Positions 1 to 10,212 of a stretch of 10,212 bases of DNA are shown piece by piece. Each line of letters opens with the position of its first letter. Positions within the stretch are counted from its first letter, which is position 1. The translations under genes were made by a program, and so were the position numbers. The notes below the pieces were generated by a model, which saw only the letters and a program-made list of their open reading frames with translations, did not search any database and was not told where the DNA came from. Source of the stretch: an uncultured bacterium (GTDB lineage: Bacteria > Krumholzibacteriota > Krumholzibacteriia > WVZY01 > JAKEHA01). The DNA is taken from assembly GCA_965372695.1 (NCBI GenBank), contig CBDVDJ010000049.1, forward strand, positions 1-10,212, written 5' to 3'.

Positions 1-1
1 G

Positions 2-175
2 TTCCTGAGCGGTACGGCGCTTCGCAAGATGCTATCAGAAGGCGGCGACATTCCCGCGGAATTCAGCCGTCCCGAAGTACTGTCTATTCTCCGTGAGTAC
101 TACTCCGGCTTGACGGAGAAAGTGGACGTTAAGCTTCACGGTCACGCGACCGGTGATGCTGAAGCCAGGAAATAG
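2..175 (+). CDS. sat: Sulfate adenylyltransferase (ATP sulfurylase), C-terminal fragment; the 5' end lies outside the window
   Basis: The frame open from position 2 to TAG at 173-175 translates to [57 protein letters not shown]. The ...SGT.LR.ML..G...P.EFSRPEV... stretch matches the conserved C-terminal region of ATP sulfurylases. The position directly upstream of aprBA fits the usual sat-aprBA synteny. Confidence 0.7.
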
Positions 176-256
176 CGGAGTGATACGTATCAACTAACGT
201 TAAGTTCAAGTGTTGGAGGAGCCAAAGGTAAATCCTAATGTACAAAGGAGGGTTTA

Positions 257-655
257 ATGCCTAGCTTCGTAATCACAGAGAAATGCGACGGGTGCAAGGC
301 GCTCGATAAGACGGCTTGCCAATACATCTGCCCGAATGACCTCATGGTCCTGGACAAGGACACGATGAAGGCTTTCAACCAGGATGTAGATATGTGCTGG
401 GAGTGCTATAGCTGCGTCAAGATTTGTCCGGTCCAGGCGATCGAGGTCCGTGGCTATGCTGATTTTGTGCCGATGGGCGCGAGCGTGACTCCGCTGCGGG
501 CAACCGACTCGATCATGTGGACCCTCAAGTTCCGAAACGGCATGCTGAAACGGTTCAAGTTCCCGATTCGCACTACCGAAGAGGGACAGGCGCAGCCATT
601 CGATCACTACCCGACGGGCGACGATGATCTCAAGAGCCAGACGCTCATGTGCTAG
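257..655 (+). CDS. aprB: Adenylylsulfate (APS) reductase beta subunit, a two-[4Fe-4S] ferredoxin-like subunit
   Basis: ATG at 257 follows the RBS AAGGAGG (245-251). The N-terminus MPSFVITEKCDGCK is the hallmark AprB start. Cluster motifs present: CDGCKALDKTACQYICP (the AprB-specific CxxCx7CxxxCP) and CWECYSCVKICP (CxxCxxCxxxCP). The conserved IMWTLKFRNG...KRFKFPIRTTEEG segment is also there. Length is 132 aa. Confidence 0.95.
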   Translation: MPSFVITEKCDGCKALDKTACQYICPNDLMVLDKDTMKAFNQDVDMCWECYSCVKICPVQAIEVRGYADFVPMGASVTPLRATDSIMWTLKFRNGMLKRFKFPIRTTEEGQAQPFDHYPTGDDDLKSQTLMC

Positions 656-777
656 CCGGCTGGACTGAATACCGAAGTCGGCCCGGTCAAGATCGACAAG
701 ATCCTCACGCTCTAGTCGAGCGCAGGTTGTCTGACAACGAACCGATTCTTCGTCAACGAACCAAGGAGAAAGACGAA

Positions 778-2670
778 ATGGCGGAATTTGAAACTATAAC
801 GGTCGAAACAGACGTGCTGATTTGCGGCGGCGGCATGGCCGCCTGCGGCGCAGCGGTGGAAGCGTCTTATTGGGCCAAAAAGCAAGGATTGAAGGTCACA
901 TTGGTTGACAAGGCGGCAATGGACCGCTCGGGCGCCGTCGCGATGGGACTGTCGGCCATCAACCAGTATGTGGATCTGAACAGCGGTAACAACACTCTGA
1001 ACGACTACGCCGACTACGTCCGCAACGACCTCATGGGTATTACCCGCGAGGACCTGGTGGTCAGCATCGCGCGCCACGTAGACTCGTCGGTCCACTTGTT
1101 CGAGAAGTGGGGTCTGCCCATCTGGAAGGATCAGGAGGGCAAATACGTACACGAGGGTCGCTGGCAGCTGATGATCAACGGCGAGTCGTACAAGGTGATC
1201 GTGGCAGAAGCTGCCAAAACCGCGTTGGCAGAGGCAAATGGCGAATACTTCGAACGCGTATTCATCACTCATCCGCTGATGGACGGCGACACGTGTGTGG
1301 GCGCGATCGGCTTCAGCACGAGGGAGAACAAGATATACGTGTTCAAGGCCAAAGCCACGCTGGTTTCCATGGGTGGCGCGGTGCACGTGTTCAAGCCGCG
1401 GTCGACCGGTGAGGGCTTCGGCCGCTCCTGGTACCCGCCGTTCAACTCGGGCGCGAGCGCGTTCTTCACCATCTACGGCGGCGCCGAGATGACCTGCCAG
1501 GAAGTCCGGTTCATTCCTGTCCGCTTCAAGGACGCGTACGGACCCGTGGGCGCCTGGTTCCTGCTGTTCAAGTCGATCGCGACCAACGCGCAGGGCGGCA
1601 ACTACATGCAGGATAATGCCGCGGAGCTCGAAAAGTGGCTGCCTTACGGCAAGGTGAAGCCGCGTCCGGCCAACATTCGTAACTGGCTGATGATGCTGGA
1701 CGTGATGGAAGGCAAGAGCCCGATCTACATGCAGACGGCCGAAGCCATCCAGAGGATCTCCGACGCGGTGCCCGACGAGAAAGAGCGCAAGAAGAAGCTC
1801 AAGGAACTCGAGTCGGAGGCCTGGGAGGACTTTCTGGACATGACCATTTCGCAGGCCATCTTGTGGGCCGCGTCGAACGTCGAGCCCGAGAAACAGCCCT
1901 CCGAGATCATGGCGTGTGATCCTTACTTCATCGGTTCGCATTCCGGCGCGTCCGGCGCCTGGGTTTCGGGACCGGAGGATCTCCAGACATCCAATACCAA
2001 GGATGAATACTTCTGGGGCTACACGAACATGTGCACGGTCAAGGGCATGTTCGCCGCGGGCGACGCCTCGGGAGCCTCGAGCCACAAGTTCTCTTCCGGC
2101 TCGCACGCCGAGGGACGCATCGCTGCCAAGGCCATGGTCGCCTACGCCGTGGACAACAGCTCGCCGCCGAACGTGGACCAGGCCCAGATCGACGCGTTGA
2201 CCGCGGAGATCCTCAAGCCGCTCGAGACTTTCGAGAAGCACAAGGATGCGACGACCGACCCGAACATCAACCCGGAGTACATCCGACCCAAGCAGTTCAT
2301 GTACCGGCTGCAGAAGATCATGGATGAGTACGCCGGAGGTGTTTCGAGTCAGTTCAAGACGAGCGACAAACTCATCGAGAAGGGAATGGAGTTGTTGGCC
2401 TTCCTCAAGGAAGACTCGGCCAAAATCGGTGCGGAGAACCTGCACGAGCTCATGCGGGGCTGGGAGAACGTCCACCGCATGTACCAGGCGGATTCTCACA
2501 TGCGTTCCATCCTCTTCCGCGAGGAGACACGTTGGCCGGGCTACTACTTCCGGTCCGACAAACCGAGCATGGACAACGAGAACTGGCTCGCCTTCTGTAA
2601 CTGTACCTACGACAGGAACACTGGCGAGTGGGAGATGATCAAAAGGCCCGTTAAATACCTTACGCAGTAA
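778..2670 (+). CDS. aprA: Adenylylsulfate (APS) reductase alpha subunit, a flavoprotein of the fumarate reductase/succinate dehydrogenase FAD family
   Basis: The ORF track starts at GTG 649, but the credible start is ATG 778 because it follows the RBS AAGGAGAA (763-770). The N-terminal FAD-binding fold is DVLICGGGMAACGAA. The length of 630 aa and strong AprA-like features support the call, and the gene sits immediately after aprB. Confidence 0.95.
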   Translation: MAEFETITVETDVLICGGGMAACGAAVEASYWAKKQGLKVTLVDKAAMDRSGAVAMGLSAINQYVDLNSGNNTLNDYADYVRNDLMGITREDLVVSIARHVDSSVHLFEKWGLPIWKDQEGKYVHEGRWQLMINGESYKVIVAEAAKTALAEANGEYFERVFITHPLMDGDTCVGAIGFSTRENKIYVFKAKATLVSMGGAVHVFKPRSTGEGFGRSWYPPFNSGASAFFTIYGGAEMTCQEVRFIPVRFKDAYGPVGAWFLLFKSIATNAQGGNYMQDNAAELEKWLPYGKVKPRPANIRNWLMMLDVMEGKSPIYMQTAEAIQRISDAVPDEKERKKKLKELESEAWEDFLDMTISQAILWAASNVEPEKQPSEIMACDPYFIGSHSGASGAWVSGPEDLQTSNTKDEYFWGYTNMCTVKGMFAAGDASGASSHKFSSGSHAEGRIAAKAMVAYAVDNSSPPNVDQAQIDALTAEILKPLETFEKHKDATTDPNINPEYIRPKQFMYRLQKIMDEYAGGVSSQFKTSDKLIEKGMELLAFLKEDSAKIGAENLHELMRGWENVHRMYQADSHMRSILFREETRWPGYYFRSDKPSMDNENWLAFCNCTYDRNTGEWEMIKRPVKYLTQ

Positions 2671-2684
2671 GGGCCTGTGGGTTT

Positions 2685-2728
2685 GCGGGATCTTTGGGCG
2701 TCGCGTCGCGGCGTCCAGAGATCCCCGC
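2685..2728 (+). terminator. GC-rich imperfect hairpin 15 nt after the aprA stop; candidate partial terminator, attenuator or 3' stabilising stem-loop
   Basis: GCGGGATCT (2685-2693) pairs with AGATCCC(C)GC (2719-2728) with a one-nucleotide bulge. The inner near-palindrome GGGCGTCGCGTCGCGGCGTCC (2696-2716) can pair with two G-U wobbles. Downstream is moderately U-containing (gcuuugcaguuauu) but has no clean U-tract. Confidence 0.4.
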
Positions 2729-2852
2729 TCCCGACGCTTTGCAGTTATTCCCGTTCGAACGTCCGGATGTGTTACAGTACTGCGCGGCTGCGGCCGGGTG
2801 GTAACCGCTGTCAGGCCGGCACCTTGGGATTATTGATCTAGTGAGGAAACCG

Positions 2853-3137
2853 ATGGCAAAACACCCTGGAACCTGCACCCATTGTGGATCCCGTCTCGAG
2901 AAGTGGCGTGTTCCCGACGACGCTACCTGGGACGAGGAGTTTTTTTACGTCTGCTTCAACGATGATTGTTCCTACTACAAATCGGGGTGGGCCTGGATGA
3001 AGGAACGTTACAACCAGCGCGCTTCGTACCGGTATGCGGTCAACCCCGGTGCCGCCGTCTCACTGATGATACCGGTCTGGTCGGACTCCGCAACGCGGGA
3101 GATGATCGAGGAGCACACCGAAGGAGGCGAGGAATGA
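2853..3137 (+). CDS. Hypothetical small Cys4 zinc-ribbon protein, 94 aa
   Basis: ATG 2853 is preceded by GAGGAA (2843-2848). An alternative GTG lies at 2841. The Cys pattern is C-x2-C-x22-C-x4-C (CTHCGS...CFNDDC). The stop TGA (3135-3137) overlaps the ATG (3134-3136) of the next gene as ATGA, which supports real translation and coupling. I recognise no family. Confidence 0.5.
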   Translation: MAKHPGTCTHCGSRLEKWRVPDDATWDEEFFYVCFNDDCSYYKSGWAWMKERYNQRASYRYAVNPGAAVSLMIPVWSDSATREMIEEHTEGGEE

Positions 3138-4021
3138 GCGACGACAAGGATCCCGCCCAGTCCAATGACCAGCTCGATAAGCTGAAGGAGAAGATAGTCA
3201 CGGATTATCCCCGGCTGGGCCCTGACGACAACTTCCAGTTCGGGTGTCATCCCGGCGTTTCGTGTTTCAACCAGTGCTGCGGCGACGTAAACATTTTCCT
3301 GTCTCCGTACGACGTGTTGCGCATGAAGAAACGTCTCGATATGACCTCGAGCGAGTTCCTCGAGAAGTATACATTTCTCCCTGTGCAAAAGGACATGAAG
3401 ACGCCCGTGGTTGTGTTGCGCTTGAACGACGACGAGGCCAAGACCTGTCAGTTCCTTACCGAGGGGGGGTGCGGCATCTATTCGGATCGGCCGTGGCCCT
3501 GCCGCATGTATCCCCTGGGACTGGCGGCTCAGAAGGACACGCCGGACGGCTGGCGCGGCGACCGGTTTTACTTCCTCATGGAAGAGGAGGGGTGCAAGGG
3601 GTTCAGCGAGCCCAGGGAGTGGACGGTCCGACAGTGGCTCGAAGATCAGGGGCTCGAGGAGTACGACGAGTGGGGAGAGGCATTCAAGGAATTGACGCTT
3701 CACAAATTCTTCGAGGACGGTGGCACCCTCTCACCGGAGAGGATGCACATGATGTACACCGCGTGCTACGATCTGGACAAGTTTCGGGAGTTCGTGTTCG
3801 AAAGCACGCTCCTGCAGAAATTCGTGGTGGATGAGGACTTCGTGGAAGAGATGCGCTATGACGACGAAGTATTGCTTCGTTTCGCGTTTCTGTGGCTGCG
3901 GTTCAGTCTTTTCGGCGAGAAGACTGTGCAAGTGAAAGCGGACGTCGTCGAGTCGTTCAAGGGAAAACGCGACAAGAAGGGATCGTTCGATCAGAAGTCG
4001 GCGGGGAATACTCCTGAATAA
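3134..4021 (+). CDS. YkgJ/UPF0153-family Cys-rich (putative Fe-S or Zn binding) protein with an unassigned ~150 aa C-terminal extension; paralog 1
   Basis: ATG 3134 follows the RBS AAGGAGG (3121-3127). The ORF track starts earlier, at 2966, in the same frame. The N-terminal motif CHPGVSCFNQCC (C-x5-C-x3-CC) and the later C-x8-C-GIY-x-DRPW-x-CRMYP segment match the YkgJ/PF03692-type pattern as I recall it (C..C..CC ... C.C.IY..RP..CR.F). Additional conserved Cys occur in EGCKG and TACYD. Length is 295 aa. Confidence 0.8.
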   Translation: MSDDKDPAQSNDQLDKLKEKIVTDYPRLGPDDNFQFGCHPGVSCFNQCCGDVNIFLSPYDVLRMKKRLDMTSSEFLEKYTFLPVQKDMKTPVVVLRLNDDEAKTCQFLTEGGCGIYSDRPWPCRMYPLGLAAQKDTPDGWRGDRFYFLMEEEGCKGFSEPREWTVRQWLEDQGLEEYDEWGEAFKELTLHKFFEDGGTLSPERMHMMYTACYDLDKFREFVFESTLLQKFVVDEDFVEEMRYDDEVLLRFAFLWLRFSLFGEKTVQVKADVVESFKGKRDKKGSFDQKSAGNTPE

Positions 4022-4091
4022 AATAGATGATGAGTGGACACGGGTCGACGGAACAAGATCAAGACAAGGGTGATCGGCGGCGCGATCAGGT

Positions 4092-4931
4092 ATGAGGGAA
4101 ATCGAACGGCTGAAGAAGGAGATCCTCGAGCACTACCCCAAGCTCAAAAAGGACGATTCGTATTCGTTCTCCTGCCATCCGGGCGTACCTTGCTTCAACG
4201 CATGTTGCGCGGACGTCAATATTTTCCTGACTCCATACGATATTCTCAGGTTGAAGAACAATCTCGGGATGAGTTCGGACGAATTTCTTTCCAGACATAC
4301 AGTATCCCCGTTCGACAAAAATTTGAAGTACCCGGCAGTTCAGCTGGCGATGAACGACGACGACGAGAAAACGTGTCCGTTCGTCGGCGAACGCGGCTGC
4401 GGGGTCTACGAGGACCGGCCCTGGGCGTGCCGGATGTATCCGCTGGGTATGGGGTCGCAGAAGGACTCCGGCACCGGCGCCGAAAGTGACTTCTATTTTC
4501 TGCTCGAGGAGGACGTGTGCAAGGGGCACGACGAAGACCACAAGCAGACGGTGGCACAGTGGCTGGAGACTCAGGGGATCGCCGAGTACGACAAGATGGG
4601 ATACTACTTCAAGGAACTGACTCTTCACGAGTATTTCCAGACCGGCGAGAATCTCACCGGCCAGAAGATCGAGATGTTCTTCACGGCGAGTTATGACCTG
4701 GACAAGTTCAGGAGCTTTTTGTTCGACACCACGTTTTTCGACAAGTTTGAAGTCGATGAAGAGACGCAGAAGAAAATCAAGTCCGACGACGTCGAACTGC
4801 TCAAATTCGGGTATTTCTGGTTGAGATTCTCTCTTTTCGGAGAGCGAACGTTGAAGGTCAAGGGAGACGTGCTCGAAGCGCGGCAGAAAAGGCTGGAAGG
4901 CAAGAAGAAGCTGGAACAGAAACAGAACTAG
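4092..4931 (+). CDS. YkgJ/UPF0153-family Cys-rich protein with the same C-terminal extension; paralog 2
   Basis: It aligns along its full length with paralog 1, at roughly 55-60% identity by eye (CHPGVPCFNACCADVNIFLTPYDILRLK...GCGVYEDRPWACRMYPLG...FWLRFSLFGERT). ATG 4092 is the first start after the in-frame TGA at 4071. The RBS is weak. Length is 279 aa. Confidence 0.85.
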   Translation: MREIERLKKEILEHYPKLKKDDSYSFSCHPGVPCFNACCADVNIFLTPYDILRLKNNLGMSSDEFLSRHTVSPFDKNLKYPAVQLAMNDDDEKTCPFVGERGCGVYEDRPWACRMYPLGMGSQKDSGTGAESDFYFLLEEDVCKGHDEDHKQTVAQWLETQGIAEYDKMGYYFKELTLHEYFQTGENLTGQKIEMFFTASYDLDKFRSFLFDTTFFDKFEVDEETQKKIKSDDVELLKFGYFWLRFSLFGERTLKVKGDVLEARQKRLEGKKKLEQKQN

Positions 4932-4988
4932 ACCGGGGCGATCGGTTGCCGCCGGTCCGAATCACCACAACGCGATGCGAGGTTCCCT

Positions 4989-5918
4989 ATGAGTGGACTG
5001 CAGCTGCTGATGTACGGTGCCTATGCCGTTTTTTTCATAGGTACGGCGTACAGGGCCTACCGGATGGCGACGATGCCCATGCATCTCCGTTGGGATCTGT
5101 ATCCGATACCGCACGAAAAGGGCAAAGCGGATTACGGCGGTTCATACTACGAAGAAATCGACTGGTGGACAAAACCCGCGAAGGTGTCTGTTTCCAACGA
5201 GTTGAAGGAAATGGCCAGGGAAATCATCTTTATCCAGTCGATGTACCACAATAACCGGTCCCTCTGGATGTTTTCGTTCCCATTTCATTTTGGACTCTAT
5301 TTATCAATCGTATTCGTTCTGCTGGTTTTTCTGGGGGGACTGCTCACGCTGCTCGGAGTACCGGTGTCCGCCGAATCGGCCAATATCTTCGGGAAAGCCC
5401 TGCACTACATTACGATGCCGTTCGGAATCGTGGGCGCCGTTATGGGTGCGTTCGGCGCTCTGGGATTGTTTGTCAGCCGATTCGCCAGGGGCGAACTGCG
5501 AAGGACGTCGGTCTGGACCGATTACTTCAACCTGATTCTGCTCTTCGCCATCTTCGCCAGCGGTCTCGCCGTCTGGGCGACGGAAGACATTTCGTACTCC
5601 GCCTTGAGGGTGTTCATCACGGATTTGATCTCCTTCAAAGGCACGCCCGCTGTGTCTACGGGTTTTGCCGTCCACATGGCGCTGGCGGCTGCGTTCCTGA
5701 TCTACCTTCCCTTTACGCACATGACCCACTTTGTGGGCAAGTACTTCACCTACCACAAGGTGCGATGGGAAGACCAGCCCAACATCAGGGGCAGCAAACT
5801 CGAAAAGCGGATCAACGAGGCGCTTGGTTACCATATCGACTGGTCGGCTCCCCACATTAAAGAGGGAACGTGGGCCGAAGCGGCAACTGCAACCGAGGAG
5901 AAGACCGAAAGTGAGTAA
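4989..5918 (+). CDS. NarI/HdrE/DsrM-family integral membrane cytochrome b subunit: five TM helices with conserved His, a putative di-heme quinol-interacting anchor
   Basis: I count five hydrophobic helices in the 309 aa protein. His residues sit inside helices 2, 3 and 5 (FHFGLY, LHYI, AVHMAL, FTHMTHF), as expected for bis-His heme b ligation in the nitrate reductase gamma fold. The stop overlaps the start of the downstream Fe-S gene. Confidence 0.8.
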   Translation: MSGLQLLMYGAYAVFFIGTAYRAYRMATMPMHLRWDLYPIPHEKGKADYGGSYYEEIDWWTKPAKVSVSNELKEMAREIIFIQSMYHNNRSLWMFSFPFHFGLYLSIVFVLLVFLGGLLTLLGVPVSAESANIFGKALHYITMPFGIVGAVMGAFGALGLFVSRFARGELRRTSVWTDYFNLILLFAIFASGLAVWATEDISYSALRVFITDLISFKGTPAVSTGFAVHMALAAAFLIYLPFTHMTHFVGKYFTYHKVRWEDQPNIRGSKLEKRINEALGYHIDWSAPHIKEGTWAEAATATEEKTESE

Positions 5919-7536
5919 TGACGACAACAACAAGAAAACGACGATAAAGGAGTTCTGCCGCCGGAAAGGGCAGATCGTCAAGCTCGACGTCTCCGAGTTT
6001 CCGCCTTTGCCGCCGCCGTACGACAAACTCGACCTCGAGCCCGGAATCAAGGAGCTCTCGGACGAGTTGAAGGAGAAGTACGAAACGGATCTGGACGGCG
6101 TTTCGGCGCTCAAACTCCCCCGTCCCGAGACGGAGGAAGAAAAGCGCGAGCTGGTCCAGAGTTTCCTGACGGGACTCAAAAAGACTTTCGAGCGGGAAAA
6201 CAACTGGGGATTCCTGCAGCCGTTGTTTCTGACGATCGAGTACTGCGCGAAGTGCCAGACGTGTTCCAGGGCATGCCCTATTTATAACGAATCGGGTCAC
6301 GAGGAGATTTATCGGCCGACGTTTCGCGCCGATATACTCCGGCGCCTGTACAAAAAGTACGTACGACCGGGGGGCAAGATCCTCTCGAAGATCTCGGGGG
6401 AGGACATCGACGCCAGCTGGACGATGATTGCCCGGCTGATGGAGCTGAGTTATCGCTGCACCGTTTGCCGCCGCTGCGCGCAGACGTGCCCGATCGGCGT
6501 TGACAACGGGCTGGTGACGCGTGAACTCCGCAAGATCTTCAGCCAGGAGATGGGAATCCAGGTCGAGCAGCTGCACAAGAAGGGTTCCGTCCAGCAGCTG
6601 AAGTCGGGGTCCAGTACGGGCATGACGCCGGTCGCGTTTCTCGACAACATCGAGTTCCTCGAGGAGGAAGTCGAGGAGCGGACGGGGATGGAGTTCAAGT
6701 GGCCGATGGACAAGTCGGGCGCCGACATTCTGCTCATCCACAACGCGGGCGAGTACCTGGCGTGGCCGGAAAACCCCGAGGCGTTTGCCATCATTCTCGA
6801 GGCGGCCGGTATCGACTATACCCTGTCCAGTGACCTGCTCGGATACGACAGCGTCAATTACGGGGTGTGGTATGACGACGTGCAGTTCGCAAAGGTGGCG
6901 CTCAAACACGTCGAGATCGCCAAGAAGCTCGGTGTCAGAAAGATCGTCCTCGGCGAATGCGGTCACGCGCACAAGGCTCTCACCGTGATCGCCGACCGCG
7001 TGTTCTCCGGAGATTATAATATTCCCCGGGAGAGCTCGCTGACACTTCTGCGCGATATCATAAAGGAAAAAAGGATCAAGGTCGATCCGGCTCGCAACGA
7101 CGACATCATCACGACGCTTCATGATCCGTGCAACCTCACGCGGCTGATGGGGATCGTGGAGCCGCAGCGCGAAGTGATCAAGGCGGTATGCAATAACTTC
7201 CGGGAGATGACGCCCCACGGCGTCCACAACTACTGCTGCGGAGGCGGAAGCGGGTTTGCGATAACCGCCAACACCAACTTCCCCGACTGGCGTACGAGCG
7301 TAGCCGCCCGCGTCAAGCTGCGCCAGATCCTGGACGTGTTCCAGGATGTCATCAAACCGGATCAGAAGAAGTACGTTTGTGCACCCTGCTCGAACTGCAA
7401 GGGAGCCATTCGCGACACACTGGCGGCCTACGGCGTGTACGAGAGATGTAACATCCTGTATGGCGGCCTGGTAGAACTCATCGTCAACGCGATGGTCGAC
7501 GTTCCCGAGGGATTTCTCGAGTGGGAATGGCACTAA
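5911..7536 (+). CDS. HdrD/DsrK-like Fe-S oxidoreductase: two [4Fe-4S] ferredoxin motifs, a Cys-less first CCG-like region and a complete C-terminal CCG domain
   Basis: The start is GTG 5911, in frame with the track ORF at 5731. It sits 10 nt after GAGGAG (5895-5900) and overlaps the upstream stop by 8 nt, which suggests translational coupling. Motifs: CAKCQTCSRACP and CTVCRRCAQTCP (CxxCxxCxxxCP), then HDPCNL...YCCGGGSG...CAPCSNC (the Cx_nCCGx_mCxxC CCG domain). The first CCG-like region lacks the cysteines, as in DsrK/HmcF/TmcB-type proteins. Length is 541 aa. Confidence 0.85.
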   Translation: MSNDDNNKKTTIKEFCRRKGQIVKLDVSEFPPLPPPYDKLDLEPGIKELSDELKEKYETDLDGVSALKLPRPETEEEKRELVQSFLTGLKKTFERENNWGFLQPLFLTIEYCAKCQTCSRACPIYNESGHEEIYRPTFRADILRRLYKKYVRPGGKILSKISGEDIDASWTMIARLMELSYRCTVCRRCAQTCPIGVDNGLVTRELRKIFSQEMGIQVEQLHKKGSVQQLKSGSSTGMTPVAFLDNIEFLEEEVEERTGMEFKWPMDKSGADILLIHNAGEYLAWPENPEAFAIILEAAGIDYTLSSDLLGYDSVNYGVWYDDVQFAKVALKHVEIAKKLGVRKIVLGECGHAHKALTVIADRVFSGDYNIPRESSLTLLRDIIKEKRIKVDPARNDDIITTLHDPCNLTRLMGIVEPQREVIKAVCNNFREMTPHGVHNYCCGGGSGFAITANTNFPDWRTSVAARVKLRQILDVFQDVIKPDQKKYVCAPCSNCKGAIRDTLAAYGVYERCNILYGGLVELIVNAMVDVPEGFLEWEWH

Positions 7537-7555
7537 CCGCGCGGAGGGACCTATT

Positions 7556-7930
7556 GTGGCCAAGAAAATCCTGATTGTAGACGACGAAGCCGACGTCAGA
7601 ACTTATCTGGAAGTACTGTTCCAGGAAAACGGGTACGAAACCGCGGTAGCCGCCGACGGCGACGAGGCGATGCCGAAAGTTCATGAGTTCAAACCGGACC
7701 TGATCTCTCTCGACATCATCATGCCGCGCGAGAGCGGCCAGAAATTTTACCGCACGCTGGTAAAAGACGCGGAGTTCGGCAAAACACCCGTCATTATCTG
7801 CAGTGGTGTAACGCGCTACAAAGAGCTGTTCTCGCGCGACCACAAGACGATGCCCAAACCGTTTGCCTTCATCGAGAAACCGATCGACAAAGGCGAACTC
7901 CTGGGCAAAATCAAGGAAGCCATCGGGTAG
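7556..7930 (+). CDS. Stand-alone response-regulator receiver (CheY-like REC domain only)
   Basis: GTG 7556 follows the RBS GGAGGGA (7543-7549). The acidic pocket is ILIVDDEADVR, the phospho-acceptor Asp lies in LISLDIIMP, and the conserved Ser/Thr (ICSG) and Lys (IEKP) are present. There is no output domain. The protein is 124 aa and starts 19 nt after the hdrD-like stop. Confidence 0.85.
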   Translation: MAKKILIVDDEADVRTYLEVLFQENGYETAVAADGDEAMPKVHEFKPDLISLDIIMPRESGQKFYRTLVKDAEFGKTPVIICSGVTRYKELFSRDHKTMPKPFAFIEKPIDKGELLGKIKEAIG

Positions 7931-7939
7931 CGCCGTGAT

Positions 7940-7961
7940 GGCCCGGGGCGCCACCCCGGCC
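7940..7961. terminator. GC hairpin in the 34-nt gap between convergent genes; possible bidirectional terminator
   Basis: GGCCCGGGG (7940-7948), a cgcca loop, then CCCCGGCC (7954-7961). It lies between the REC stop (7930) and the stomatin stop (7965-7967). There is no U-tract. Confidence 0.3.
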
Positions 7962-7964
7962 TCG

Positions 7965-9113
7965 TCACGCTGCTTCCGGACCTTCGGCGGCGGCGGTTCC
8001 GGCGGCGGAGCCGGCGTCTGTCCCGGTATCCCCGGGCAGGTCGGCCGTCTTTGCGAGCGCCGTCAGGCCGCCCAGAACACCCAACCCCATCGATTCGACC
8101 GCTGATGACGGTACGATGATCATCGACCCCTTCTGCCGCAACCCCTCGTAGACCATGTTCATCGCGCGCAGGTGCAAAGCGACCGGATTGTCCTGGTAGT
8201 GGTAGGCGGCGGCGGCGAATTTTTCGGCGATCTCGGTCTCGGCGGTGCCGAGGATGATCCGGCTCTGGCGTTCGCGTTCCGCCTGCGCCTGTCGTGACAT
8301 CGCGTCTTCGAGGCCTTTGGGTATCACGATGTCGCGGATCTCGACGTCCTGGGTGGTGACACCCCACGCGTTGGTTTTTTTGTCGAGGAGCTTCTGGATC
8401 TCGGAGCCGAGACGGTCCCGTTCCGACAGCAGGGTGGCGAGGTCGTTTTTTCCGATCGCGTTACGCAGCGCCGTCTGCGCCGACAGGATGACGGCGTCCT
8501 CGAAATGCTCGACTTCGAGTACGGACTTCTGCGCGTCCCACACCATCCAGAACGCGATCGCGTCGACGCTGACCGGCACCGTGTCCGCCGTCAGCGTTGT
8601 CTCGGCGCTGAAGTCGGTGACGCGGATTCGCTGGTCTACGAACTGGGCGACTTTGTCGATGACGGGAATGACGGCGAAGAGCCCCGACGACCGTATCGCC
8701 TTGAATTTGCCAAATCGCAGCACGACGGCGCGTTCCCATTGATAAGCGATCTGCACAGACGTCGACACCAGTACTGCGACGGTGATGGTGACGAGTAACA
8801 CGTCGTCCAGCGGCCGCATGACGAGGTACGCGATGAAACAGTCCGCCGTGGCGAGCACGACGACGGCTTCCCATATCTGTGTGAGCCGTATCAAGCCCGC
8901 CAGGATAAGCGCCGATCCGAGAAACAACGCAACGGCGTCCGCGCTGAAGCCATGGAGGCGGAGGTGGACGATCAGGCCGGCGACGAACAGTGCCACCAGC
9001 AGCAGAACGTTCAGGGGTGCAAACCTGAAATCGGCCCTCATGGTGGCGGCAAAGCGTTCCAGTGAAATACCGGGTACCGATCGGCCTTCAGCCGTTTTTA
9101 CGGATCCAGTCAT
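7965..9113 (-). CDS. SPFH/band-7 (stomatin/prohibitin-like) membrane protein with an extended multi-TM N-terminal region and a low-complexity Ala/Gly/Thr C-terminal tail
   Basis: The core YQWERAVVLRFGKF...GLFAVIPVIDKV...TADTVPVSVDAIAFW...ILSAQTALRNAIGK is a typical SPFH domain. ATG 9113 follows the RBS AAAGGAG with an 8-nt spacer and overlaps the gntR stop as ATGA. The ~125 aa before the SPFH domain contain about four hydrophobic helices. An internal Met (MRPLDDVLLV...) would give a conventional single-hairpin stomatin, so the true start is somewhat uncertain. Confidence 0.8.
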   Translation of the reverse strand: MTGSVKTAEGRSVPGISLERFAATMRADFRFAPLNVLLLVALFVAGLIVHLRLHGFSADAVALFLGSALILAGLIRLTQIWEAVVVLATADCFIAYLVMRPLDDVLLVTITVAVLVSTSVQIAYQWERAVVLRFGKFKAIRSSGLFAVIPVIDKVAQFVDQRIRVTDFSAETTLTADTVPVSVDAIAFWMVWDAQKSVLEVEHFEDAVILSAQTALRNAIGKNDLATLLSERDRLGSEIQKLLDKKTNAWGVTTQDVEIRDIVIPKGLEDAMSRQAQAERERQSRIILGTAETEIAEKFAAAAYHYQDNPVALHLRAMNMVYEGLRQKGSMIIVPSSAVESMGLGVLGGLTALAKTADLPGDTGTDAGSAAGTAAAEGPEAA

Positions 9114-9487
9114 GACGACGACTCCTTTCGTTGCCGCAGTCCTTCCAGCACATCGTCGAGCATGAGCCCGTAGCTGGAAGCGCGAGCCATTAGTTCGGTC
9201 AAAATCTGATCGAGCATTCTCTGTTTTTCCAGCCGGTCGATCTCCGGCTTGCGGCTGCCGATAAAAGTCCCCGAGCCCTGTTGTGTGTCGAGCGTTCCTT
9301 CGATTTCGAGTTCGCGGTACGCGCGCACCACTGTGTTCGGGTTGATCGCGAGTTCGACGGCGAGCTGGCGAACCGTCGGCAGGCGGTCTCCGGGGCCAAG
9401 CTCGCCGCTGGCAATGCCGAACTTGATCTGTTCGATAATCTGCCGGTAGAACGGCACGCCGCTCTTGTTATCCAGAATAAATCCCAT
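9110..9487 (-). CDS. GntR-family transcriptional regulator, short YtrA-like subfamily (125 aa)
   Basis: The winged-HTH signature is PFYRQIIEQIKFGIASGELGPGDRLPTVRQLAVELAINPNTVVRAYRELEIEGTLDTQQGSGTFI. The short C-terminal dimerisation tail is typical of YtrA-like members. ATG 9487 follows a GGAG RBS. Confidence 0.9.
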   Translation of the reverse strand: MGFILDNKSGVPFYRQIIEQIKFGIASGELGPGDRLPTVRQLAVELAINPNTVVRAYRELEIEGTLDTQQGSGTFIGSRKPEIDRLEKQRMLDQILTELMARASSYGLMLDDVLEGLRQRKESSS

Positions 9488-9506
9488 AGGCTCATCTCCG
9501 TTTATC

Positions 9507-9540
9507 GTACTATAAGACTAGTGTACTAGCATTATAGTAC
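9507..9540. promoter_or_regulatory. Perfect 9-bp inverted repeat GTACTATAA-N16-TTATAGTAC; candidate GntR/YtrA operator
   Basis: The arms are at 9507-9515 and 9532-9540. The spacer GACTAGTGTACTAGCA carries a direct ACTAG-TGT-ACTAG and a third GTAC. The repeat sits 20 nt upstream of the gntR start and overlaps the predicted -10 and transcription start. GntR operators are typically GT-Nx-AC palindromes. Confidence 0.5.
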
Positions 9541-9558
9541 AATATGAGAGTGTGTCAA
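9531..9558 (-). promoter_or_regulatory. Near-consensus sigma70-type promoter on the - strand: TTGACA-N16-TATAAT
   Basis: On the - strand the sequence reads TTGACA (plus coordinates 9558-9553), a 16-nt spacer, then TATAAT (9536-9531). The predicted TSS near 9524 gives a ~37 nt leader for gntR-stomatin. The region 9496-9640 is markedly AT-rich compared with its surroundings. Confidence 0.5.
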
Positions 9559-9636
9559 CCCCCGGGCGGAAATATAATCATAACCTATGTTATTATAAGC
9601 GGTTATCAGGCATGGCTGTTCGACGTGCCCGCGGGA

Positions 9637-10212
9637 TCAGTGTTTCGTCAGGATGTGTTTGACGTCTTTTATATAAATGACGTATCGGCCCTGGTAGGGG
9701 TCGAATTCGCCATAGGCGAGGTAGTTCCCGTCCGGCGACCACGCGGGATACTGGGCAAACTGGGTGTCGAAGGTCAGCTGGACCTCGTCGGTCCCGTCGG
9801 GGTTGCGCATGTACACCTTGCCGCCCCGGCAGAACGCGATCGTATCATAGGGCCGGTTCCAGTCGGGATGGACGCAGGCCTCTCCGTAAGGCGTGATGGC
9901 GACTTCGTTGCCGCCGTATCTCGGCATGACGATGATCTGCGCGCCGTTTAGCCCGGGATGCGTGCGCTGAAACGCGATACGGTGTCCAAGGATCCCCCAC
10001 GTGGGGTGGAAATCGCCGTTGCCGCTGGACACCTTGATGAGTCCCGAAGATTCGAGTAGATATATGTAGTAAACGACGCCGCCATGGGCGAGCGTGTCGG
10101 CCTTGGAGAAGGCGAGTTTCCCCGTAGCGCCCGGAGGAGCCACGGCCACCTCGAAATCCTTCTGTTCAGTGTTGGTTACCGGCGCCTCCCAGCTGATCGC
10201 ACCCGTATAAAT
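9637..10212 (-). CDS. PD40/WD40-like beta-propeller repeat protein (TolB-like), 3' portion; the gene continues beyond the window edge
   Basis: The repeat motif YPAWSPDGNYLAY and repeated aromatic/Gly-rich propeller-blade-like segments are present. The frame stays open upstream of the listed GTG at 10149, through to position 10212 (...ISWEAPVTNTEQKDFEV...), so the gene is N-terminally truncated by the window. Confidence 0.65.
   Translation of the reverse strand: MYTGAISWEAPVTNTEQKDFEVAVAPPGATGKLAFSKADTLAHGGVVYYIYLLESSGLIKVSSGNGDFHPTWGILGHRIAFQRTHPGLNGAQIIVMPRYGGNEVAITPYGEACVHPDWNRPYDTIAFCRGGKVYMRNPDGTDEVQLTFDTQFAQYPAWSPDGNYLAYGEFDPYQGRYVIYIKDVKHILTKH

Follow-up and report, generated by a model that had tools for sequence, protein, structure and literature searches.

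The connection of the adenosine 5'-phosphosulfate (APS) reductase AprBA to the membrane has long been a missing piece of dissimilatory sulfur metabolism. QmoA has been reported as the Qmo subunit that contacts AprAB, and purified QmoABC and AprAB bind each other; in vitro, electron transfer from quinol to APS via QmoABC and AprAB failed, a third partner was proposed, and the authors saw no candidate gene co-localized with sat-aprBA-qmoABC (PMC3333476). Here, we analyzed a 10,212-nucleotide (nt) stretch of DNA (the window) from an uncultured bacterium (GTDB lineage Krumholzibacteriota; Krumholzibacteriia; WVZY01; JAKEHA01), corresponding to positions 1 to 10,212 of the forward strand of contig CBDVDJ010000049.1 in assembly GCA_965372695.1. 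Behind aprB and aprA, it carries a zinc-ribbon gene, znf (2853..3137, +), and two adjacent genes coding for extended YkgJ proteins, namely, ykg1 (copy 1; 3134..4021, +) and ykg2 (copy 2; 4092..4931, +). Coordinates are those of the window unless a numbered relative locus (Lnnn) is named, homologous proteins are numbered as Pnnnn, and conserved residues are numbered according to copy 1.

Published gene maps draw the znf-ykg position only as "hyp-hyp," for example in Thermonerobacter thiotrophicus (PMC6338057), in which aprA, two conserved hypothetical genes, and qmoC stand in the order that we found in L071, L075, L080, and L087, a match by gene order alone. The genes in such maps (PMC6338057 included) are drawn without family assignment, distribution, partner analysis, or function. 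One family member, encoded on a fosmid of an uncultured sulfate reducer in 2005 (CAJ31182.1), is annotated as 'conserved hypothetical protein (UPF0153)', and our literature search found no functional or comparative study of the extended Ykg family. DVU0851, an additional gene in the qmo operon of Desulfovibrio, has been described as Desulfovibrio-specific. What is new here is a widespread znf-ykg module of APS reductase loci, which joins the known PF03692 family to an uncharacterized domain.

Several described systems can be set against this module. QmoABC, QmoAB-HdrBC, and AprM share with znf-ykg the slot directly after aprBA and the proposed job of linking AprBA to the quinone pool. In contrast to QmoABC and AprM, to which it has no sequence or fold similarity, Ykg lacks a flavin/HdrA-type domain, a CCG domain, and a membrane segment; moreover, QmoABC and HdrDE-like modules coexist with Ykg and are not replaced by it. 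Escherichia coli YkgJ (b0288; PF03692, formerly UPF0153), described in the sequence-only reading of this DNA as a protein of around 110 amino acids (aa) and indeed 109 aa long, shares with Ykg the C...C...CC cysteines and the later C-x7-C-x9-CR(M/x)(Y/F) cysteines. Relative to YkgJ, however, Ykg is 2.6 times longer, carries an eighth invariant cysteine and a helical domain of ~130 aa found only in this subfamily, and has an obligate zinc-ribbon partner and a linkage to apr, and a direct comparison by hhalign yielded a probability of only 2.9%. Ykg is a bona fide PF03692 member, yet it resembles YkgJ neither in size nor in a direct comparison of profiles. FliB, the flagellin lysine methyltransferase of Salmonella, is a PF03692 protein with an N-terminal CX4CX3CC motif, eight conserved cysteines, and one [4Fe-4S] cluster (PMC8598068). 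It is the only PF03692 member with biochemistry, and by its published description, it resembles Ykg in its CXnCX3CC motif, its eight conserved cysteines, and the presence of sequence beyond the cysteine domain (PMC8598068). Compared with Ykg by its published description, FliB differs in spacing (CX4 versus CX5 in Ykg) and in context (flagellar versus APS reductase).

The Ykg proteins and the znf-ykg module

The products of ykg1 and ykg2 (295 and 279 aa, respectively) had been described as alignable end to end, and we found them to be 53% identical over 276 residues with one 1-residue gap (E = 1e-113). Membership of their N-terminal domain in the YkgJ family, for which a profile check had been proposed, was confirmed by PF03692 (CxxCxxCC) matches of 36.5 bits (copy 1) and 38.4 bits (copy 2) against a gathering score of 23; this match, confined to residues ~33 to 129, is the sole Pfam match of both proteins. 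Both copies carry the motifs C38-x5-C44-x3-C48C49, GCG(I/V)Y-x-DRPW-x-CRMYP, YDLDKFR, and WLRFSLFGE(K/R)T. Eight cysteines (C38, C44, C48, C49, C105, C113, C123, and C154) are invariant in 113 homologues comprising relatives of both copies, consistent with the expected conservation of the N-terminal clusters, and the same eight are invariant in 17 members sampled family-wide, including members only ~40% identical. Cysteines 1 to 7 lie within the YkgJ domain, and the eighth lies in a 'CxG' motif that opens the extension. Within that extension, W168, K185, H190, D215, R218, W254, and the LFGE-x-T motif are invariant or nearly so; among the 113 homologues, K185 and D215 are invariant, and H190 and R218 nearly invariant.

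The claim of a shared, conserved C-terminal tail with no recognized domain held, except that 'EGCKG', given as a common motif, occurs in copy 1 only, with copy 2 reading 'DVCKG'. The C-terminal half has no Pfam match even at E ≤ 10, no NCBIfam match, and no PDB sequence match in single-sequence or profile searches, and its domain has no PDB fold match. An AlphaFold2 model of copy 1, built with a homologue alignment, reached a mean predicted local distance difference test score (pLDDT) of 79 and a predicted template modeling score of 0.76, with the helical C-terminal domain (~165 to 270) at pLDDT 89 to 97. Using this domain alone as the query against 1.84 billion representatives, we matched 521 proteins. 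Among the roughly full-length matches listed (≥ ~240 aa), the domain occupies residues ~120 to 290, with room for a YkgJ domain before it, in all but two exceptions, both explained by frameshifted read-through, and 16 of 16 matches that were aligned carry the cysteine domain. Many matches of ~134 aa that appeared to consist of the C-terminal domain only begin inside the FYFL...C.G motif, and we treated them as short-contig fragments rather than as stand-alone domains. Three unusual architectures were likewise dismissed: P0302 (508 aa) joins znf, ykg, and qmoA through frameshifted read-through; P0151 (377 aa) is Ykg continued into narI sequence in the wrong frame; and the apparent ZnF-Ykg fusion in L076 is an artifact, an in-frame TAA at 7983-7985 of that locus separating the two.

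No transmembrane segment was detected in the ykg1, ykg2, or znf proteins (no hydrophobic 19-mer above 1.6 in Ykg). Nor does Ykg carry a CCG domain, having no PF02754 match and an hhalign probability of 0.2% against the DsrK/HdrD-like protein of the window. ykg1 and ykg2 code for intact, soluble members of an extended (~250 to 300 aa) PF03692/YkgJ subfamily, and our data show an architecture composed of an N-terminal seven-cysteine YkgJ domain, an eighth invariant cysteine, and a subfamily-specific helical C-terminal domain of ~130 aa. Copy 2, reported as visibly more AT-rich, is so marginally (GC 52.7% versus 56.4% for copy 1; GC at third codon positions, 74.9% versus 77.3%). The ratio of nonsynonymous to synonymous substitution rates (dN/dS) relative to close relatives is 0.11 to 0.15 for copy 1 and 0.05 to 0.28 for copy 2; both copies are under purifying selection, as had been proposed.

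The gene znf, an obligatory partner overlooked in the sequence-only reading, codes for a 94-aa acidic, tryptophan-rich C4 zinc-ribbon protein. Its start codon is the ATG at 2853, with GAGGAA as the ribosome-binding site ahead of it, and its stop overlaps the ykg1 start by 4 nt (ATGA, 3134-3137); a 4-nt overlap of znf stop and ykg start is also present in 30 other loci. A znf homologue, coding for a protein of ~90 aa, stands directly upstream of ykg in 77 of 77 loci, showing that znf is the constant, obligate partner of ykg. The protein passes the test for the Ogr/Delta zinc-finger family (PF04606, 29.9 bits; gathering score, 26.3), and the spacing C-x2-C-x22-C-x4-C, which we take to be that of phage Ogr itself, was present in 19 of the 22 sequences checked. 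In contrast to Ogr/Delta proteins, ZnF proteins have no phage context, are longer than the 47-position domain model, are always paired with ykg next to apr, and are acidic and tryptophan-rich, with five invariant tryptophans and the conserved motif VCFND-x-C-x-Y-x3-GW-x-WM...SYR...PVW. Their acidity (median pI 5.0; net charge, -1 to -10) argues against a phage-Ogr-like DNA-binding role.

One scan of species-representative genomes returned relatives of ykg in at least 554 genomes. The context counts given here rest on the best 80 of these, with neighboring genes mapped by tblastn and with loci having enough flanking sequence as denominators. All 80 loci come from metagenome-assembled genomes and represent more than 10 phyla, their sources including Gemmatimonadota, Planctomycetota, Desulfobacteraceae UBA2156, 'delta proteobacteria', Ignavibacteria, Zixibacteria, Elusimicrobiota, Kryptoniota, Krumholzibacteriia, and Bacteroidetes. 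In 59 of 63 loci, the module directly follows a same-strand aprA. The four remaining loci differ: aprBA is close by but on the other strand in L072 and L074, L047 combines aprB with a partial aprA that matches poorly, and only L066 lacks an apr gene within 8 kb. The same aprBA-znf-ykg picture was seen in contigs from Nitrospirae, Schekmanbacteria, and Kapabacteria, and in a distant subfamily from marine sediment metagenomes, 7 of the 8 loci with sufficient flanking sequence have apr within reach. Thus, the constant unit is aprB-aprA-znf-ykg, with znf-ykg forming a two-gene module directly after aprBA in many phyla.

What follows the module varies. Immediately downstream, 52 of 72 loci have qmoA, 3 have a NarI/HdrD-like gene, and 17 have another gene, the last group comprising TauE plus QmoC-like genes (L008 and L018), dsrC-dsrMK (L024), dsrAB (L077), qmoC (the four loci with the Thermonerobacter order), and unrelated genes (e.g., L067 and L069). 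These data show that the placement of znf-ykg is independent of which membrane module follows and, because aprA is constant while the downstream neighbors vary, they tie the family to APS reductase rather than specifically to an Hdr-like module. Accordingly, a survey suggested in the sequence-only reading, namely, whether the pair travels with apr or hdr genes, came out in favor of the apr link and against an Hdr-like neighbor. The flanks had been read correctly (aprB and aprA upstream, a NarI/DsrM-like cytochrome b and a DsrK/HdrD-like protein downstream), but placement between aprA and an Hdr-like module is not the oddity it was taken for, as a single copy after aprBA is the rule among the at least 554 species genomes. 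In 41 of 54 loci, the stop codon of ykg and the start codon of qmoA share a 4-nt overlap; ykg is translationally coupled to qmoA where Qmo is present.

As a separate observation, in the Nitrospirae contig L085, a second CxxCxxCC gene (264 aa) and its 58-aa neighbor lie beside hppA-qmoCBA (1-260 and 11872-12177 of that locus), and a DUF6955 gene lies between sat and aprB.

Cassette exchange at the apr locus

To place the two copies, we drew on three relatives of the window: L001 and L004, which are close and carry both copies, and L084, which has identical flanking synteny and one copy. In a neighbor-joining tree, copy 1 falls inside clade A, together with Gemmatimonadota and Planctomycetota genes linked to Qmo, and copy 2 falls inside clade B, together with genes from Ignavibacteria, Zixibacteria, and Elusimicrobiota, each copy grouping more closely with single-copy genes from other phyla than with its neighbor. 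Among the mapped loci, both copies occur together only in the window, L001, and L004, and additionally on one contig from the Joint Genome Institute (JGI; P0003 and P0121). The order in L084 is TauE plus a QmoC-like gene (-), sat-aprBA-znf-ykg-narI-hdrD-response regulator, and Band7 plus GntR (-), its only ykg being of clade B; a second JGI contig (P0122) has this gene order and also a single copy. The ykg2 protein is 75 to 77% identical to the L084 copy, the flanks being identical in order.

Comparison of L001 with L084 at the amino acid level revealed a mosaic. More specifically, identity is 91% for Sat in the left flank, falls within the cassette (AprB, 74%; AprA, 73%; ZnF, 49%; Ykg1, 55%), and rises again in the right flank (Ykg2, 77%; NarI, 82%; HdrD, 90%; response regulator, 88%; Band7, 85%; GntR, 88%). 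The cassette proteins AprB, AprA, ZnF, and Ykg1 are instead 69 to 90% identical to those of clade-A loci, and AprA of the window is 81 to 90% identical to AprA of clade-A loci versus 71 to 76% to that of clade-B loci and 73% to that of L084. Synonymous divergence (dS) between the window and L001 is 0.29 to 0.35 for aprB, aprA, znf, and ykg1, as opposed to 0.94 to 1.39 for narI, hdrD, and the response regulator gene, and is saturated for ykg2. Likewise, nucleotide identity is 0.84 to 0.95 in windows spanning 301-4200 (0.89 to 0.95 in coding stretches), with dips there confined to the aprA-znf spacer and the ykg1/ykg2 junction, and 0.71 to 0.86 on either side. The breakpoint in both dS and identity lies exactly between ykg1 and ykg2.

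Together, the two deep clades, the single-copy L084 locus, and the identity/dS mosaic demonstrate that the doublet is not a local duplication. The resident aprBA-znf was displaced by a foreign aprB-aprA-znf-ykg1 cassette, and ykg2, itself resident, stayed beside the NarI/HdrD-like genes; the cassette has moved between the lineages of the window and L001 since their split. The adjacency of ykg1 and ykg2 is a recombination junction, and the doublet is a lineage-specific by-product of cassette exchange. The sequence-only reading had instead proposed an old tandem duplication in situ, with paralogues serving the adjacent Hdr-like module. Its age estimate stands in that the divergence between the copies is old, and the genes are indeed adjacent, 53% identical, and located beside a NarI/HdrD-like pair. 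Nevertheless, local origin of the pair is scarcely credible given the tree, the single copy of L084, and the position of the breakpoint, and most family members adjoin qmoABC rather than Hdr-like genes. Whatever the function of the module, the replacement is a clean example of the spread of apr genes.

Candidate roles of ZnF-Ykg

Judged from sequence and gene context, ZnF-Ykg probably functions as an APS reductase helper. We hold it slightly better than an even chance that ZnF-Ykg is a soluble Fe-S (or Fe-S/Zn) adaptor between AprBA and a quinone-linked electron module, with the doublet as a cassette junction. As a cytoplasmic accessory, ZnF-Ykg would dock AprBA to that module, for which QmoA(BC), a lone QmoC-like protein, or a DsrMK/HdrDE-like pair are the candidates, and it may relay electrons between the two. 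Ykg would have one face fitted to AprBA and a second fitted to the membrane module, such that a cell would need both copies after the swap, ykg1 for the new AprBA and ykg2 for the HdrDE-like pair, possibly as a heterodimer. Four lines of evidence point toward an adaptor: the module stays next to aprBA whatever membrane module follows; Ykg would be made in lock-step with QmoA, the reported AprAB-contacting subunit of Qmo (PMC3333476); a [4Fe-4S] cluster can be accommodated by the PF03692 motif, as in FliB (PMC8598068); and the resident ykg2 beside the HdrDE-like genes was retained under selection after AprBA had been swapped, as expected for partner-specific faces.

Pairs of family members recur in a distant subfamily. 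Eight loci (L091 to L096, L099, and L103) contain two tandem members, X (267 aa) and Y (251 aa), that are ~40% identical to each other where measured (L092 and L103); each is 60 to 64% identical to its L103 counterpart, and all eight cysteines are kept in X and Y of L092 and L103. In L092 (3583-6963 of that locus), the X and Y reading frames overlap by 4 nt and lie directly behind a PAS/sigma-54 activator gene. In these loci, znf is on the opposite strand, and in L092 and L095, aprBA lies beyond it, also on the opposite strand (~2.8 kb away in L092 and ~2.6 kb in L095). A Nitrospirae contig has two unlinked ykg copies. The recurrence of pairs, one of them translationally coupled (L092), makes a dimeric working unit plausible, possibly a heterodimer. 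Such a heterodimer had been suggested for ykg1 and ykg2, and the overlapping, translationally coupled members of this other lineage lend indirect support to it.

Several points weigh against an adaptor role. Metal binding, redox activity, and physical contacts of Ykg and ZnF are all predicted, and the confidence of the AlphaFold2 model is lowest near the cysteine loops (pLDDT 62 to 68). The strand layout of L092-type loci and their sigma-54 activator indicate that co-transcription with apr is not universal. Classical sulfate reducers such as Desulfovibrio are not known to carry a gene between aprBA and qmoABC; if they indeed lack one, znf-ykg is not universally required. Moreover, ykg2 could have been kept merely through its position at the breakpoint, or for an unrelated role.

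Among the rivals, a factor devoted to maturing or assembling APS reductase, inserting Fe-S or flavin adenine dinucleotide or holding the AprB tail, matched to its own AprBA lineage and standing outside the electron path, is unlikely but deserves serious attention. Such a factor would account for the movement of znf-ykg with aprBA as one transfer unit and for the way in which the Ykg clades parallel AprA similarity to the window (81 to 90% for clade A, 71 to 76% for clade B), and the lack of the module in some apr operons would fit a lineage-specific helper. It sits poorly, however, with purifying selection on the resident ykg2, whose cognate aprBA-znf was replaced, with the frequent ykg/qmoA overlap (41 of 54 loci), which suggests output equimolar with a structural subunit rather than that of a catalytic helper, and with the tandem X/Y pairs, which are untypical of chaperones. 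A bolder form of the adaptor reading would have ZnF-Ykg complete the AprBA-Qmo (or AprBA-HdrDE-like) system as its missing third component in the many phyla with the module. It would be a soluble metal-cluster adaptor that links the quinone pool, physically and electronically, to APS reduction or sulfite oxidation, or that recruits a second low-potential donor for confurcation, with the helical C-terminal domain as a new fold for docking respiratory modules; we regard this as decidedly improbable.

Similarity to FliB raises another alternative, namely, that Ykg is a [4Fe-4S]-dependent protein-modifying enzyme (e.g., a methyltransferase) acting on AprA, AprB, or Qmo, with its helical domain binding the substrate. 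The CX5CX3CC motif and eight invariant cysteines of Ykg recall the CX4CX3CC motif, eight cysteines, single cluster, and extra sequence of FliB (PMC8598068), and the polar residues K185, D215, H190, and R218 would fit an active or binding site. Even so, the cysteine spacing is off by one residue in a comparison that uses the published description of FliB, the Ykg C-terminal domain has no S-adenosylmethionine-binding signature and no Pfam match, and the fliB context offers no counterpart to the close association of Ykg with a zinc-ribbon protein and qmoA, making such an enzyme very unlikely. Least probable of these alternatives in our judgment is a regulatory pair, in which an Ogr/Delta-type activator and a redox- or sulfite-sensing Fe-S Ykg would control apr/qmo expression. 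ZnF does exceed the Ogr_Delta threshold with the spacing seen in 19 of 22 sequences, and the L092 genes are apart from aprBA and beside a sigma-54 activator; against this, ZnF is acidic and tryptophan-rich rather than basic and has no helix-turn-helix motif, and mid-operon genes translationally coupled to qmoA would be unusual for a regulator. We therefore rank the adaptor model above the maturation-factor, FliB-like, and regulatory rivals. Found at this spot in Gemmatimonadota, Planctomycetota, Ignavibacteria/Kapabacteria, Zixibacteria, Nitrospirota, Elusimicrobiota, and others, usually coupled to qmoA and transferred as a block with aprBA, znf-ykg is a concrete candidate for coupling AprBA to the membrane, and it can serve as a marker to annotate apr loci in metagenomes.

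Other features of the window and of related loci

The first cassette gene, aprB (257..655, +), codes for the APS reductase beta subunit (PF12139, E = 1.7e-32; match to 1jnr_B, E = 2e-57). It is interrupted by an in-frame TAG at codon 133 (653-655), where relatives have a glutamate codon (GAA in L004, GAG in L001); 19 further conserved codons (PAGLNTEVGPVKIDKILTL) follow in frame, up to a stop at 713-715. The TAG is a window-specific nonsense change that removes the C-terminal tail of AprB, and it could have arisen by sequencing or assembly error or by recent mutation, or could be subject to read-through. The alpha subunit gene, aprA (778..2670, +), scored 866 bits against TIGR02061 (cut-off, 642; E = 1e-260). 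Just after its stop, the 182-nt aprA-znf spacer contains a 20-bp GC-rich hairpin (2685..2728, +), identified by folding 2668-2852 (minimum free energy, -83.4 kcal/mol; z = -2.75), with no T-run and no Rfam match. This hairpin may act as an mRNA 3' stabilizer or attenuator, and may set the ratio of aprBA to znf-ykg expression.

Downstream of ykg2 lie a gene for a NarI/DsrM-like membrane cytochrome b (4989..5918, +; PF02665, E = 1.6e-13; 41 hydrophobic windows) and one for a DsrK/HdrD-like protein with two [4Fe-4S] motifs and a CCG domain (5911..7536, +; Fer4_8 and CCG matches; start taken from the L001 gene call). Both remained below the NCBIfam cut-offs (NF045796 DsrK, 335 bits versus 400; NF038037 DsrM, 40 bits versus 300), indicating that the module is DsrMK/HdrDE-like rather than DsrMK. 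The next gene codes for a receiver-only response regulator of 124 aa without an output domain (7556..7930, +; PF00072, E = 3e-20), which is also found directly 3' of the HdrD-like gene in L001, L004, L072, L076, and L084 and appears to belong to the NarI/HdrD-like module. In three loci (L072, 9095-9715; L074, 9053-9574; L076, 8931-9446), a protein of ~170 aa is encoded between ykg and the NarI/HdrD-like genes; by eye, it has a MerR-type-looking N-terminal helix-turn-helix and a cysteine-rich C terminus (CW...C...C...CW...C...C..C), and it may be a redox-sensing regulator of that module.

Upstream of sat-aprBA, in a region corresponding to sequence beyond the left edge of the window, L001 (2559-5173) and L084 (1666-4253) carry a divergent set coding for a lone QmoC-like protein (Fer4 plus NarI-like), a small protein, and a TauE/SafE-family exporter. 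Neither qmoA nor qmoB was found in the L001 and L084 stretches, up to 9 to 10 kb on either side of this set, and organisms of this type may operate AprBA through only QmoC-like and HdrDE-like modules.

Three Desulfobacterota metagenome-assembled genomes of the provisional genus UBA2156 are reported to have only oxidative-type DsrAB, together with DsrL-2 (review, PMC10591310). L019, from Desulfobacteraceae UBA2156, is a clade-A locus, and clade-A znf-ykg loci may largely belong to sulfur oxidizers, with other lifestyles in clade B.

At the right end of the window, a Band7/SPFH gene (9113-7965, -) overlaps a GntR-family gene (9487-9110, -) by 4 nt, the two being syntenic in L001 and L084. A sequence matching the sigma-70 consensus at 12 of 12 positions (TTGACA-16-TATAAT; 9558-9531, -) lies ~45 nt upstream of the GntR-family gene and is likely the promoter of a two-gene GntR-Band7 operon.

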